Virus record (IMG/VR): IMGVR_UViG_3300023707_000001
Strand: one strand, 5' to 3'
DNA from: a virus
Lineage: Duplodnaviria; Heunggongvirae; Uroviricota; Caudoviricetes
DNA: 64,000 nucleotides
Position numbers and translations under genes: made by a program. This document shows, piece after piece, positions 55,628-60,620 of this stretch. The first letter of the stretch is position 1. Each line of letters begins with the position of its first letter. The notes under the pieces were generated by a model. That model ran no database searches, was not told the origin of the DNA, and saw only the letters and a list, made by a program, of their open reading frames with translations.

Positions 55628-56386
55628 ATGAAAGCCAGTGTAATCGTGCCGGTATATAATGTTGGAGGTTATTTGAGAAAATGTCTGGATAGTATACTGG
55701 CCCAGTCTTATAAAGATATGGAAATCGTTATTGTTGACGACTGCTCTACAGACAGCAGCGGCAAGATTTGCGACGAGTACGCAGCAAAAGACGAGAGAAT
55801 TACCCTGGTTCACCATCCCGAAAACCGCGGATTATCAGCCGCCCGCAATACAGGTTTGAACCTCGCAACCGGCGAGGTTTTCTTTTTTATCGACAGCGAC
55901 GACTGGATTGAAAAAGATATGGTGAAAACGGGTGTAGAAGAGCTTGAGCAAAATACCGATGTGGATATCGTATGCTTTAGCTATAACAGAATATATAAAA
56001 GCGGGAAAGCTTTTCCGTACTGCACATTCTTTAATAGCCGAAAGGTTGAACCAGAAAAAGCAATCGAAATGACAATCGATCAAATAATCAGTATTGATGT
56101 CTGGAACAAATGTTTCCGCAAGAGCCTGTTCGACAATTTGCGCTTCCCGGAGGGGCTTATCGGAGAATGCTGCGAAATTACATTCCAGCTCTTCGACAAA
56201 GCAAGGCTTGTTTTATTATCCACCTATATTGCTTACAACTTTGTGTTTGAGCGGGCGGACAGTATCCGTAACTCACAAAGTGATAAACTTGCACAGCATA
56301 CAAGCATATTGATGAAACGAGTAAGCAGTATGATTAAAGCAAAATATCCGAGAGTTTACAGACATATCGAGAAAGAGGGGCTATAA
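55628..56386 (+). CDS. Family 2 glycosyltransferase
   Basis: SVIVPVYNV, VDDCSTD, NRGLSAARNTG, FIDSDD, WNK. Confidence 0.92.
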   Translation: MKASVIVPVYNVGGYLRKCLDSILAQSYKDMEIVIVDDCSTDSSGKICDEYAAKDERITLVHHPENRGLSAARNTGLNLATGEVFFFIDSDDWIEKDMVKTGVEELEQNTDVDIVCFSYNRIYKSGKAFPYCTFFNSRKVEPEKAIEMTIDQIISIDVWNKCFRKSLFDNLRFPEGLIGECCEITFQLFDKARLVLLSTYIAYNFVFERADSIRNSQSDKLAQHTSILMKRVSSMIKAKYPRVYRHIEKEGL

Positions 56387-58101
56387 TGGCAAAAGGTGTT
56401 GGTACGGGAGATAGGTTTTTGCAAAGCGAAAGAAGCGGGTGGTATGCAATATGTACAGATATTTACGAGATAAAAAGTGCCCCAACGCTAGATGAGTTTA
56501 AAAGATTAAAAGAAATATGCTCAAAAGACCCGACCGCAACAAGAGTGAAGCTTCACGAAGCCGGGACGACAGTGGGGTGCTGTTATGGTACACAGCACTT
56601 AAGGAAGCTGGAGGATGGCGCAGATTATAGTGTCGGAGACATTGTGATTGTAGACAAAATCTACATAGCACAGTGCATAAAAGCTGGCAATATCGGCGTG
56701 GTTGACATGGATACATTTCGAGCTGGCAACAAAGAAAATAAAGTTGTCACTGCAACGCAAGGCGAAACGCAATGGAAGACCTATTTTACAAACGGGCGCT
56801 ATTCAATAGAGGAAACCATCCCTAAAACATGCAATATAAATTGGCTGTATTTAATCGAAACAAACAGCCAAGAAAAAATGTATGAAATCTATTATATTTC
56901 CCCTGCCCACTTGCCGGAATATAATACATGGGGCGGAATATTAAAGTGGGCAACAGATGGGCAAGCTGGAGAGTTTGATAGTGAGGTAAACCGGACAGGA
57001 GAAAAAACTGGAAGACATTACTCGGTTGCAGAAAATATGCTCGCTGAATATATAGAGACAATTGGGCTTACATACGAAGAATACTGTGACGATAAAGAAT
57101 GGACAAGTGAGGATGAAACCAGAAAGGAAGAACTCCAAGCCGAATTCAACGAGCTTGAAGAATGGGACCCCGCGTCAACGCCAATAATTTATGACGAGCT
57201 TGTACGGGGTATATATAAGTATGACGGAATCACATATCGTTATAATGGACGCGAGGGGATAAATCTATACTGCAATAATAAGGCGGTTATGTCGGTAAAA
57301 TATAACGGTGTAGTACTGAAAGACGTTGCGTTGCCAAAAACAGACATAACTTTTATACCAATAACTGACGACGAAATAAAAAACGGGGGCGATGAATACT
57401 GGGCTCCCTATCCAAACCTAAAAATGCGAACATACCCATTTAGCGCATTAGACTTTAAAAATGTAACATATATGGGGCACTTGTTCAGCGTGTACCCCTA
57501 CAAACAATACAGCTCAATAGACGTAACAGGATTGCGGACAAATAATGTTACAAGCATGTGTGGAATGTTTGAGTATTGTAGCGAGTTGAAAACGCTTGAT
57601 GCGTCAAATTTTCAAACGGAAAATGTTACCAACATGAATGAGATGTTTAGTGAATGTGGAGAATTAACATCTGTTAAAATACCATTGCAAATGGCAACAT
57701 TAGAGATGGATGATATGTTCTCATACTGCTCAAAGCTCGAAAAACTCACCCTTATGTGTCGCGACAAAGTAACCATCACAACAATGTTTTGTGCGTTTAA
57801 CTTCTGCCAGAGCTTAACGGAATTGGATTTTTCAAATCTTGACACAAGTAACTGTACAAATATGAAAAGGGCGTTCGAGCTCTGCAAAAGCCTTGTTTCA
57901 ATAAAAGGCGTATTCGACTTGAAGTCGGCGGCAGGAGTGGATAATTGGGGACGAAAAGGATACGCGGATATGTTTAGATACTGTACCAAACTCACCGGCG
58001 TACAAATCAAGAATCCGCCAGAAGGCTTTACTACACATGATGCAAAGACCGGTCTTAATCCTGCCGGCCTCCGTAAAGACCAATATGTCATTGTTCAATA
58101 A
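56386..58101 (+). CDS. BspA/DUF285-like leucine-rich-repeat protein
   Basis: Repeats such as TNNVTSMCGMFEYCSELKTLD and TENVTNMNEMFSECGEL. Confidence 0.8.
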   Translation: MAKGVGTGDRFLQSERSGWYAICTDIYEIKSAPTLDEFKRLKEICSKDPTATRVKLHEAGTTVGCCYGTQHLRKLEDGADYSVGDIVIVDKIYIAQCIKAGNIGVVDMDTFRAGNKENKVVTATQGETQWKTYFTNGRYSIEETIPKTCNINWLYLIETNSQEKMYEIYYISPAHLPEYNTWGGILKWATDGQAGEFDSEVNRTGEKTGRHYSVAENMLAEYIETIGLTYEEYCDDKEWTSEDETRKEELQAEFNELEEWDPASTPIIYDELVRGIYKYDGITYRYNGREGINLYCNNKAVMSVKYNGVVLKDVALPKTDITFIPITDDEIKNGGDEYWAPYPNLKMRTYPFSALDFKNVTYMGHLFSVYPYKQYSSIDVTGLRTNNVTSMCGMFEYCSELKTLDASNFQTENVTNMNEMFSECGELTSVKIPLQMATLEMDDMFSYCSKLEKLTLMCRDKVTITTMFCAFNFCQSLTELDFSNLDTSNCTNMKRAFELCKSLVSIKGVFDLKSAAGVDNWGRKGYADMFRYCTKLTGVQIKNPPEGFTTHDAKTGLNPAGLRKDQYVIVQ

Positions 58102-58177
58102 CACCTCTATAAAGAACCCTCTATTTTGGGAGGCCACTGAAAAACTTTCATTTATGAAAATCTGAAAGTTATCCACA

Positions 58178-58228
58178 AAAAAGAACCGTACTACTTGATA
58201 GGCATTATCAGGTGGTACGGTTCTTTTG
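58178..58228. terminator. Bidirectional terminator inside the IS left end
   Basis: AAAAGAACCGTAC...GTACGGTTCTTTT. Confidence 0.7.
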
Positions 58229-58262
58229 ATATATCCGCTTACAGACGGCATATTTATTGCTG

Positions 58263-59747
58263 TCATTCCTCCATAAGCTTGATTATCCTCTTTATATTTG
58301 TTACAAAGAGCGTAGTTGCTCCTTGTAATTCCATGCCTTTCAGGCCTGATGACGATGCTATATCGTAACCATGCCTGTGCTTAATTTCGCTATTCTTAGC
58401 TTCTATCATATATCTCAGAGATGCCAGTTCTTTGAAATGCGCTGTTTCTTGGAAATCTTTCTGTCGTTTATGCTGATCGCATATGATTCTGACAGAATAA
58501 GTTTTAGATTTGGCACCTGGCTTGTAGCAGGCGCCGCACTGCGGGCAATTTTTACATTTTTCAATATCGAAATAGTAGGTAGTTATTTGATTCTTATTTA
58601 CGTTCTTACGGCCAGTACGGGCTTTCCGGATAGCCATATGGCCTTCGGGGCACACAAACATATCGGCGTCCTTGTTATAGTGGAAGCCGCCGTCTCCTTC
58701 TGCGTGAGTGCTATCAGATATAACAGGGTTCAGCTTAGATATAAGTTCAAAAGATTTCTCTGGCGACCCCGCTGACTCTGCCAGCTCAAGATTTTTCTTT
58801 CCTGAATATGCGGTATCACCTATAACCGTATCGACATCCACTCCTGCAGCTTTCGTTTTATTTACCAACATTTCGAGTTGTTCGCCATCGCTGCGCTCCC
58901 CACTGGTGATTACGGCAGCAGTAATAATTCTCTCATCTGTCATAGCAATGTGCGTTTTGTAGCCAAAGAAGGACGTATCAGCAGTTTTGTGACCAGTTCT
59001 AGCGTCAGTATCTTTTGACTGCTGTAGATGCTCAGCATTGTCATTTACAACTTCACTGAGCATGTTCAATTTTTCTTTGACTGCAGGAATAGATGATACA
59101 ATAGAATCTTCTTCAATAACATGTGTTAAATCACGACAATATTGAAGAGCATCTTCAATATTGTCGTTCTCTACCTTCTTGGGGAACTTCTTTTTCCAGT
59201 CCGGGGAAGCGGTCTTATATACTGTCTTACGCAAAAGCTTGGCCTGTTCCAGCAGTTGGGCATAAGCAGACTTCTGGTTATATCTTGCCTTGGTGTGGGT
59301 GGCATCTACGATTATGCGATTGCTCTTGAGTACGCCCTTATCTATAGCTATTTGCACACTTTTAGCGATGAGCATATCCAGAAGGTTCTCATCTGCCAGT
59401 CTCAGTTTGCGGAATTTGGTCAGAGTGGTAGAGTGTATAACATCATCCTCCGGGCGCAGGCCAAGAAAATATTTGAATGACATATCATAACGGCTGCGCT
59501 CTACCAAATCGGCATCAGACATATTGTACAATACTTTAAGGAGAAGATACTTGAACAATAGGATAGGCGATACTGCCATGCGCCCATTATCCAAGCAATA
59601 CTTCTCCCTTAGCTCGTCATATATAAAAGAGAAGTCAACGAGTTTGTTGAATTTTCTGAGAAAATGGTCTTTAGGTATGAGATTGTGGTATAACCCTTCA
59701 TAGGAACTAAACTCAAGTTGCTGAGCGTTGACAAGCATAAATGCCAC
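58263..59747 (-). CDS. IS1182-family DDE transposase
   Basis: IPKDHFLRK, IVDATH, DTDAR.GHK....FFGYKTH, GDTAY, FVCPEGH, RYMIEAKNSEIK. Confidence 0.93.
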   Translation of the reverse strand: MAFMLVNAQQLEFSSYEGLYHNLIPKDHFLRKFNKLVDFSFIYDELREKYCLDNGRMAVSPILLFKYLLLKVLYNMSDADLVERSRYDMSFKYFLGLRPEDDVIHSTTLTKFRKLRLADENLLDMLIAKSVQIAIDKGVLKSNRIIVDATHTKARYNQKSAYAQLLEQAKLLRKTVYKTASPDWKKKFPKKVENDNIEDALQYCRDLTHVIEEDSIVSSIPAVKEKLNMLSEVVNDNAEHLQQSKDTDARTGHKTADTSFFGYKTHIAMTDERIITAAVITSGERSDGEQLEMLVNKTKAAGVDVDTVIGDTAYSGKKNLELAESAGSPEKSFELISKLNPVISDSTHAEGDGGFHYNKDADMFVCPEGHMAIRKARTGRKNVNKNQITTYYFDIEKCKNCPQCGACYKPGAKSKTYSVRIICDQHKRQKDFQETAHFKELASLRYMIEAKNSEIKHRHGYDIASSSGLKGMELQGATTLFVTNIKRIIKLMEE

Positions 59748-59831
59748 CTCTAAAAAGACATATATTCTTATAATAGATAATTATGCTTTAATCATTATAA
59801 GCAAATCAAATGGTAATATATAATTATATCC

Positions 59832-59860
59832 TTGATTTTATTTGTTAATTCTGCTACTAT
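59832..59860 (+). promoter_or_regulatory. Sigma70 promoter for the small RNA
   Basis: TTGATT-17nt-TACTAT with TG extension. Confidence 0.65.
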
Positions 59861-59866
59861 AACTAT

Positions 59867-60009
59867 AAGAGCAGAAGGCAACCTACACAATGATGGTCGC
59901 CTGGTGCTTTCTGAGAGAGATTAGGTAAGAACCCAACATCATCAGATTGCCGTCTGATGGAACGAGACTCAACATGGAGGAGCCGCCCTTGCCGGGGCGG
60001 CTTTTTCTT
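59867..60009 (+). ncRNA. Putative cis-antisense antitoxin sRNA (about 145 nt)
   Basis: Own promoter; stems CAGAAGGCA/TGCTTTCTG and CATCAGA/TCTGATG; terminator AGCCGCCC...GGGCGGCTTTTTCTT. Confidence 0.65.
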
Positions 60010-60130
60010 CATGTGCTTGCTGAGAGCCAAGGCTAGATACTCACCAAAAAGAAAGAACAATAATTCTTAGTATCCCCGGAGGCACCGGAGAATACGAGGT
60101 TTTGCCCAGTGGTATAAATCTTTTCCCATC

Positions 60131-60232
60131 TCAGAGAAAAAACTCTTCCCAATAGCAGCTCCCATAAAGGAGCCAATAGCTGTAAAAACGCTCATCGATT
60201 TGGTTATGTAGATTTAGGAGCGATAGAAACAT
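60131..60232 (-). CDS. Putative type I toxin peptide (33 aa, MFLSLLNLHNQIDERFYSYWLLYGSCYWEEFFL); an alternative 42-aa ORF lies at 60067-60195
   Basis: SD GAGGGAG just upstream, sequestered by the predicted 5'-3' fold-back; promoter at 60337-60365. Confidence 0.4.
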   Translation of the reverse strand: MFLSLLNLHNQIDERFYSYWLLYGSCYWEEFFL

Positions 60233-60336
60233 CACTCCCTCAAGCTTCGGAGTAAAGCACCAGGAAGCTCGACTAGACTTACTTCGACCATCATTATGCG
60301 ACCGTAGCAAAATACGGTAGATTGCCTTCCTCATAT

Positions 60337-60365
60337 AGAATACCAATAAAACGCCCGAAAGTCAA
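60337..60365 (-). promoter_or_regulatory. Sigma70 promoter for the putative toxin mRNA
   Basis: TTGACT-17nt-TATTCT with TG extension on the minus strand. Confidence 0.65.
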
Positions 60366-60620
60366 AAACTTATTGTCCATTATAAAAGTCCACCTAAGTA
60401 GATGAAACTATAGGTGGACTTTTTCAGTGGCCTTCTATTTTGGTTGGGTTCTTTTTGTTTGCACCATATTCAAAATTGTTTTGCCATTTTTCACTATATA
60501 ACAGTCGGTTGAATAAGGCGAAATGTGAAGGTGGAGAAAAATAAAAGTAATATTCCAAACACAGGTAGATAAACGGCGGTTATTAATATACCGCCTATAA
60601 AGATACGAAGAAAGGGTAGT

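Follow-up and report, generated by a model that had tools for sequence, protein, structure and literature searches.

The window analysed here, i.e. the whole stretch of 64,000 nucleotides of DNA from a Caudoviricetes virus, carries an intact insertion sequence (IS) of the IS1182 family, and the carrier of this IS is a large (jumbo) phage of the gut or rumen. The left inverted repeat (IR) is GAGGCCACTGAAAAA and the right IR is its reverse complement. The element is flanked by a 9-10-bp target duplication, (T)CTATTTTGG, with copies at 58120/1-58129 and 60434/5-60443. Terminal IRs, target duplication and a DDE transposase with DUF772 and DDE_Tnp_1_6 domains place the element in the IS1182 family. 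The transposase is identical to the database protein P0004, present on 8 contigs, and proteins P0005-P0016 are 74-85 % identical to it. When the flanks are joined without the IS they give AAAGAACCC-loop-GGGTTCTTT-TTT, the terminator of a DUF285 gene (56386-58101); since the joined flanks rebuild this hairpin, the IS must have landed in the terminator loop. The element is not a simple IS without passenger, as about 560 bp of additional DNA lie within its IRs. The preliminary description had placed the region of interest inside the IRs, about 690 bp upstream of the transposase; location of the IRs and of the duplication bears this out, the gap between the IR and the transposase ATG (59738) being about 695 bp, in comparison to about 100 nt in 101 relatives (among the matches listed).

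Table 1. Features of the IS1182-family element and its passenger (positions in the window)
Feature	Position	Strand	Remarks
IS1182-family IS	58130..60434	−	2305 bp; intact; IRs 58130-58144 and 60420-60434
Transposase	58263..59738	−	491 aa; DUF772, DDE_Tnp_1, DDE_Tnp_1_6
IR-proximal hairpin of the IS	60377..60430		same feature in relatives
Passenger module	59818..60376	−	stretch homologous to IS-free L188 (93.6 % over 560 nt)
Peptide mRNA promoter	60337..60365	−	TTGACT-17-TATTCT; from promoter scan; boxes conserved in homologues
Antisense sRNA promoter	59833..59861	+	TTGATT-17-TACTAT; homologues TTGACT-16/17-TATAAT
Antisense sRNA (predicted, ~140 nt)	59869..60009 (approx.)	+	5' blocks equal mRNA 5' blocks
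42-aa peptide ORF (p42)	60067..60195	−	MSVFTAIGSFMGAAIGK...LRGY; candidate toxin
Overlapping leader ORF	60131..60232	−	33 aa, from the SD-linked AUG; frame and length not conserved
5' arm of long-range helix	60251..60330	−	blocks 60330-60319, 60299-60285, 60264-60251
3' arm of long-range helix	59873..59912	−	40 consecutive paired positions
SD-like GAGGGAG and AUG	60216..60241	−	local 10-bp hairpin (60239-60216); analogous hairpin in other subtypes

The IS was compared with 176 related loci (among the matches listed), whose transposases are ≤72 % identical to its own. In the dozens of relatives read (among the matches listed) the IR lies about 100-110 nt upstream of the transposase ATG, and next to it come a terminator hairpin, a promoter of the TTTGCTGTATAAT type and an AGGTGG RBS. 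The IR-to-IR length of 101 relatives (among the matches listed) has a median of 1695 bp (range 1656-2170), in comparison to 2305 bp here. Both ancestral parts are retained in this IS, namely the IR-proximal hairpin (60377-60430), which blocks read-through into the element, and the transposase-proximal promoter with RBS (59738-59809); about 560-577 bp must accordingly have entered the gap between the two. With ordinary IS1182 elements this IS shares the transposase domains, the IRs and the IR-proximal hairpin, as well as the hairpin or terminator-loop targets and the 8-10-bp duplication; it differs from them in its greater length and its two-promoter passenger.

Two observations on the related elements were made in passing. 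The clade targets hairpin apices, for the most part those of rho-independent terminators, with duplication of the 8-10-nt loop: for 81 related elements the mean pairing energy is -16.2 kcal/mol between an element's own two flanks and -9.8 between mismatched flanks, and many relatives show a clear stem-IS-stem arrangement with a duplicated loop of 8-9 bp. A different insert of about 190 bp, GC-rich and repeat-like (…CGCGGGGCG..TTGAGCCTCCTC..GCGGGGTCTCA…), occupies the same gap between IR-proximal hairpin and promoter in L052:2695-3000 and L067:2705-3000, and likewise in L004, L012, L041, L070 and L073. This spot seems to tolerate or attract nested insertions in the IS clade.

Homologues of the passenger were found in one further IS and in bacterial chromosomes. 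A full-library HMMER search with p42 gave P0128, a 157-aa miscalled ORF on a 1395-bp ENA contig, known from the protein alone. Over its C-terminal 42 residues P0128 shares 79 % identity with p42, and what precedes them is an IS1182-type IR (…CTGCTGAAAAAGTCC), the IR-proximal hairpin, the promoter and the 5' UTR, all translated by read-through; the 34 residues covering the 5' UTR are identical to the corresponding frame of the window, and the promoter and spacer parts have diverged, with indels. A second, diverged IS copy, as judged from this upstream translation, thus holds the module at the same junction. The module is absent from 101 related IS copies (among the matches listed), and blastn and tblastn with the passenger against the 176 related-transposase loci (≤72 % identity, among the matches listed) gave nothing. 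Its retention in another copy of the IS is indicated by P0128, at the protein level, and the contigs of the 74-85 % identical transposases P0005-P0016 may include additional IS-borne modules.

A search of sampled genomes matched one genome (G908), and the follow-up search covered the family of this genome, which makes up the entire order (one of the orders of Bacillota), 262 genomes in all. About 10 of them (9-10) are module-positive. Matches to the 16-mer core CACAATGATGGTCGCC number 18 and are spread over 10 genomes, with as many as 4 in a single genome, and the reversed control pattern gave 0 matches in the 262 genomes. One copy, L188 (genome G1401), lies in a bacterial chromosome with no IS and matches the window at 93.6 % identity across 560 nt (60376 to 59818). 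The IS1182 transposase is absent from all five module-bearing genomes examined. The flanking genes are ordinary and differ between copies, and homology ends sharply at the two -35 boxes, across different chromosomal contexts. Besides the window type, a second subtype (L182, L184, L185 and L186) encodes a 40-aa peptide, MEYQLLLYAIGTFVLVPILSGFWSEFGKDLYTWLKAKLLG, and a third (L189, L191 and eight further copies) carries an unrelated, strongly hydrophobic ORF on the same RNA scaffold. L192 is truncated at the 5' end. Two orphan loci, L187:1400-1600 and L190:1-140, consist of the sRNA part with promoter, 5' blocks and own terminator, in genomes that show no full module. Taken at the sequence level, the module is a stand-alone chromosomal family captured by an IS1182 lineage, and not an invention of the IS.

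The family is apparently undescribed and unannotated. Rfam gave nothing near any gathering score for the window region and five homologous loci, so that the search proposed with the preliminary description yielded no known RNA family. None of the small ORFs matched Pfam (none at E ≤ 10) or NCBIfam, the ESM Atlas search gave no usable lead, and homologous-protein searches with p42 and with P0128 gave no additional members. Nothing was obtained by blastn of the passenger against phage and plasmid collections, nor in IMG/VR with four exact or degenerate patterns, the empty target site among them; about 800 sampled genomes of Clostridia and Lachnospiraceae gave short AT-rich chance matches only. 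Full-text searching of the literature turned up no account of a type I module carried by a simple IS.

Two convergent sigma70 promoters had been proposed for the region. The promoter scan flagged the minus-strand site and missed the plus-strand site, and the number of promoter-like matches in the region (4 found, 3.6 expected) is at chance level, so the scan alone is not evidence. What remains of the proposal is the conservation of both sites: their -35 and -10 boxes hold position in the homologues, with spacers that vary. The peptide mRNA is predicted to start near 60331. The predicted antisense sRNA comprises a hairpin at 59940-59959 and a 14-bp GC-rich terminator hairpin at 59981-60002, followed by a U-run to 60009, which the terminator scan overlooked. 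In RNAalifold this terminator covaries across the homologues, with the U-run on the sRNA strand only, and the peptide mRNA should therefore read through to the 3' arm. That a plus-strand sRNA is antisense to the 3' region of the mRNA, as first suggested, holds by geometry; the predicted sRNA lies opposite the 3' UTR and the 3' arm and not opposite the start region (60216-60241). As in type I systems, there appears to be an antisense RNA gene with its own promoter and terminator, able to pair with the peptide mRNA.

The 42-aa peptide has a hydrophobic N-terminus with a GxxxGxxxG pattern, which is only moderately hydrophobic, a basic tail and a net charge of +4. In addition to P0128 it aligns without indels to the peptides of L188 (86 % identity) and of subtype 2 (about 50 %). 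Comparison of the window with L188 gave a dN/dS ratio of 0.21, the subtype 2 peptides gave 0.09-0.32 among themselves, and subtype 3 gave a pooled value of 0.25; the changes are biased to third codon positions. Between the window and L188, 13 of 129 coding nt and 2 of 104 nt of the 5' UTR differ, and the 40-nt 3' arm is identical. This pattern of substitutions indicates that the peptide ORF is under purifying selection; it is a truly coding gene for a small (<60 aa) hydrophobic peptide, of the kind found in type I loci.

p42 has no SD of its own, and the AUG to which the SD-like GAGG(GAG) belongs is another one, 37 nt upstream. The reading frame starting there overlaps the peptide ORF in all three subtypes, with frame and length that vary: it has 33 aa in the window and 44 aa in L182, and relative to the peptide it is in the +1 frame in the window, in L188 and in subtype 2 and in frame in P0128. 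Among the peptide ORFs of the preliminary description the 42-aa ORF without SD is thus the conserved one, whereas the ORF behind GAGGGAG is a non-conserved leader frame. The 33-aa ORF was rejected as a toxin candidate on account of its lack of conservation and an indel in P0128. A conserved upstream ORF starting from AUGAUG in block 2 was also rejected, its frame differing among the subtypes. In subtype 3 (L191:1164-1358 and nine paralogues, L194-L197, L204, L205, L207, L208 and L210) two ORFs overlap in different frames, one of 20 aa preceded by an SD at good spacing (MKNVICRGFDNSVPRKGKRL) and one of about 59 aa that is hydrophobic. Hardly any nucleotide varies in either, which may reflect dual coding or RNA structure.

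Folding of the minus strand from 60332 to 59850 (ViennaRNA) gave an MFE of -181.3 kcal/mol, in comparison to -139.8 ± 5.7 kcal/mol for shuffled sequences (z -7.2), and the fold contains the expected pairing of the two ends of the mRNA. The predicted helix begins at the predicted +1 of the peptide mRNA promoter, consists of 36 Watson-Crick and 4 G.U pairs with a mean pair probability of 0.90, and contributes about 20 kcal/mol. Its 5' arm is split by two hairpins (60318-60300 and 60284-60265). Three blocks had been described earlier as inverted copies of a 37-nt stretch with one G.U-compatible difference; these blocks are the cores of the 40-bp helix, which has four wobbles and not one. All four are G.U on the mRNA (minus) strand only. 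The arms reach -65.6 kcal/mol on the minus strand and -56.1 on the plus strand, the whole region -181 and -159 kcal/mol, respectively. The suggested pairing of the SD GAGGGAG with 59913-59919 is possible on paper but could not be upheld: it is absent from the MFE structure, in which SD and AUG lie in the local hairpin, and L188 lacks 2 nt of CUCUCUC.

The closing helix was predicted in 8/8 full-length modules of the three subtypes (23-42 bp, z -5.2 to -9.4), and RNAalifold recovered it unprompted from a plain MAFFT alignment. In this helix 91 % of the cells are paired; when the partners are slid, the share falls to 35-60 %. Changes on both sides affect nine pairs, a number matched by 2 of 500 shuffles; the covariation score, which rests on about three independent lineages, was matched by none of the 500. 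The covariation expected of a real fold-back was in this way recovered in the homologues. No change occurs in the helix core, AAUGAUGGUCG/CGACCAUCAUU. In block 3 the window type and subtype 2 differ by five double changes that preserve pairing, and in block 1, almost wholly replaced between subtypes, the pairing persists. Gene conversion homogenising the inverted repeat could mimic part of the covariation.

The predicted fold-back depends on the 3' end of the mRNA, as a transcript that stopped at the GC-rich hairpin would not fold back. In most chromosomal copies 4-7 U directly follow the 3' arm, and the closing helix may for this reason terminate the mRNA; helix and U-run together may form a terminator whose 'hairpin' is the whole mRNA. 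The tract is poorer in the IS copy and in L188. A TATAAT box at 60377-60382, a remnant of the ancestral IS promoter region, stands directly upstream of the module. It could yield a 5'-extended peptide mRNA, and such a 5' end would be at odds with the closing helix.

In txpA/RatA, located in a prophage-like element of Bacillus subtilis, a convergent antitoxin RNA reportedly overlaps the 3' end of the toxin mRNA. The promoter and terminator geometry described above corresponds to such a convergent, 3'-overlapping antitoxin, and a Firmicute host and residence on a mobile element are further common points. A convergent antitoxin RNA also lies over the toxin mRNA 3' end in bsrG/SR4, from a prophage-like element of the same species (PMC3834814). 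By analogy with both systems, the first contact of the two RNAs is likely to be made via complementary hairpin loops, and RNase III would be expected to take part. In contrast to the module, no closure by a long 5'-3' helix is reported for the mRNAs of these systems, and no match in Pfam, NCBIfam or Rfam points to homology with their toxins or RNAs.

The closed mRNA has its counterpart in hok/mok/Sok of plasmid R1 and in the chromosomal hok loci, where pairing of the extreme 5' and 3' ends closes the mRNA and inhibits it by fold-back (PMC5416894). The module appears to share with them closed mRNA ends, here through a predicted, conserved and covarying 40-bp helix, as well as a sequestered start, an overlapping leader ORF, a small membrane-directed peptide and several copies per genome. 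It differs in that the antisense RNA covers the 3' arm, whereas in hok/Sok the mok leader start region is targeted, in the splitting of the 40-bp closing helix by two hairpins, and in the Gram-positive host. The likeness is one of the way of working and not of homology; no Hok_Gef domain was found in the peptide (Pfam, E ≤ 10). In aapA1/IsoA1 of Helicobacter pylori the full-length mRNA is inert by its fold, 3' processing activates it and RNase III cuts the antisense duplex (PMC5416894). An inert, closed full-length mRNA is predicted here by analogy. In contrast, IsoA1 overlaps the 5' translation start region, aapA1 needs no overlapping ORF, and there is no sequence or peptide similarity. Toxin-antitoxin passengers that adjoin the transposition genes are known in Tn3-family transposons, where they are of type II with a protein antitoxin (PMC7157771). 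The resemblance consists in a toxin-antitoxin-type module lying within a transposable element and inherited with it; the difference is between type II modules in large transposons and one of the RNA-antitoxin type in a one-gene IS.

The data support the view that, in terms of sequence, the region shows every anatomical part of a type I toxin-antitoxin locus. The passenger of about 560 bp is probably, though by no means certainly, a type I toxin-antitoxin-like module which the IS1182 lineage acquired from, or which is common to, the chromosomes of one Bacillota order. A type I-like module belonging to an IS had been proposed at the outset: locus anatomy, covarying fold-back and selected peptide speak for the module, but it is not specific to the IS, as IS-free chromosomal copies exist.

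The mechanism that such a module would follow can be outlined. The minus-strand mRNA would start near 60331, pass the sRNA terminator hairpin, with which no U-tract is associated on this strand, and end after the 3' arm. The three 5' blocks would then zip with 59873-59912 into the 40-bp closing helix, a step suggested by modelling and covariation, with both RNA ends buried; the SD-like site and AUG would stay in their local hairpin, and the mRNA would presumably be stable and untranslated. The convergent sRNA of about 140 nt would be perfectly complementary to the last ~140 nt of the mRNA, 3' arm included. After a first contact, probably through the hairpin loops, it would displace the 5' blocks and form a long duplex, to be cut by RNase III with decay of the mRNA, as in txpA/RatA and bsrG/SR4. 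If the sRNA were lacking, slow opening or trimming of the closed mRNA may allow translation of the leader frame and production of the putatively membrane-active, SD-less p42, on the model of hok/mok and aapA1. The overlapping leader resembles that of mok/hok, and its role in peptide translation is putative. The direction of sRNA action, to repress or to activate, is likewise inferred.

The same anatomy might belong to a small membrane-protein gene with a cis-antisense regulator, the peptide being not a toxin but, e.g., a stress or envelope peptide with no addiction or toxin-antitoxin role. Such a function would agree with the purifying selection on the peptide, the ordinary genes next to the chromosomal copies, the only moderate hydrophobicity of the p42 N-terminus and the lack of matches to known toxin families. 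However, the module occurs in several copies per genome with a patchy distribution, includes orphan sRNA copies and one truncated copy, has had unrelated hydrophobic ORFs swapped on one RNA scaffold, shows an extreme sequestration of the start region and resides on an IS. Multiple copies, patchy occurrence, orphan sRNAs, ORF exchange, sequestration and residence on an IS are what type I loci typically show and would be unusual in a small housekeeping protein, and a non-toxin function seems unlikely. It is highly improbable that the sRNA is the main product, acting in trans on other targets with the peptide mRNA as a secondary feature. The orphan copies L187 and L190 without a peptide gene, together with the core CACAAUGAUGGUCGCC, invariant in the homologues, would fit a trans-acting RNA, but the peptide ORFs are under purifying selection and the 5' UTR of the mRNA is the most conserved part of the module (2/104 nt changed in comparison to 13/129 coding nt, L188).

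The position of the module upstream of the transposase raises the question of its service to the IS. A regulatory leader with an antisense RNA, tuning transposase synthesis like RNA-IN/RNA-OUT of IS10, could be read from the minus-strand transcript directed at the transposase and from the lack of a clear U-run after the 3' arm in the IS copy, which makes read-through possible. This is very unlikely to be the function, as a 93.6 % identical module stands alone in the chromosome of a genome without the IS1182 transposase, and other subtypes likewise; moreover, the 101 related IS copies (among the matches listed) lack the module, the relatives read keep their own promoter and RBS within about 100 nt, and here, too, the transposase-proximal promoter and RBS persist. 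An explanation purely at the level of DNA, i.e. decayed IRs of a nested non-autonomous element or protein operators downstream of two promoters, with no RNA pairing, is scarcely credible. The sharp ends of homology at both -35 boxes in differing chromosomal contexts and the 8-bp direct repeat CATTATAA (59793-59800 and 60378-60385) bracketing the extra DNA would suit it, but 4/4 arm mismatches are G.U on one strand, both arm insertions are themselves hairpins, and compensatory changes preserve the pairing as the sequence changes. The repeat was rejected as a firm target duplication, being not kept in P0128 and lying 17 nt outside the L188 homology.

Lying within the IRs, the putative type I module moves with the IS. 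That the IS also uses it as an addiction or control device is doubtful. With no U-run after the closing helix in the IS copy, the mRNA would in that case read into the transposase, and the sRNA level would gate both transposase and killing, so that the IS, together with the phage or host replicon that carries it, would tend to be retained.

The family can be regarded as RNA-controlled small-peptide loci of gut or rumen Bacillota, with three peptide subtypes on one RNA scaffold. Its predicted design is unusual in that a 23-42-bp helix brings together the outermost nucleotides at the two ends of the mRNA, with the antisense RNA encoded exactly opposite the 3' arm; the hok/aapA1 principle of an inert closed mRNA would be combined with the Bacillus principle of a 3'-overlapping antitoxin. 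As far as found, this is the first such module as passenger of a one-gene IS, and it was the IS that brought it into the jumbo phage. If the peptide is toxic, the module would be a compact means for the IS to secure its own retention and a route for the spread of toxin-antitoxin genes between chromosomes and phages.

Two short sequences of the module deserve mention. The 11-mer AAGAACCCAAC in the sRNA (59927-59937) is the reverse complement of the right IS flank (60443-60453), the 3' arm of the split terminator. Within the window the 11-mer is unique, and over the entire passenger about 0.02 chance matches are expected. That RNA guidance links the sRNA to the IS target was rejected, and the match is most likely due to chance, since the IS-free L188 has the 11-mer too, between unrelated flanks. 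The octamer AGCAAGCA (alignment A1 columns 365-372; window ~60018-60025), located in the stretch that separates the peptide stop from the sRNA terminator hairpin, does not vary among the 8/8 aligned modules of the three subtypes and is replaced in some further subtype-3 copies (L195, L204).
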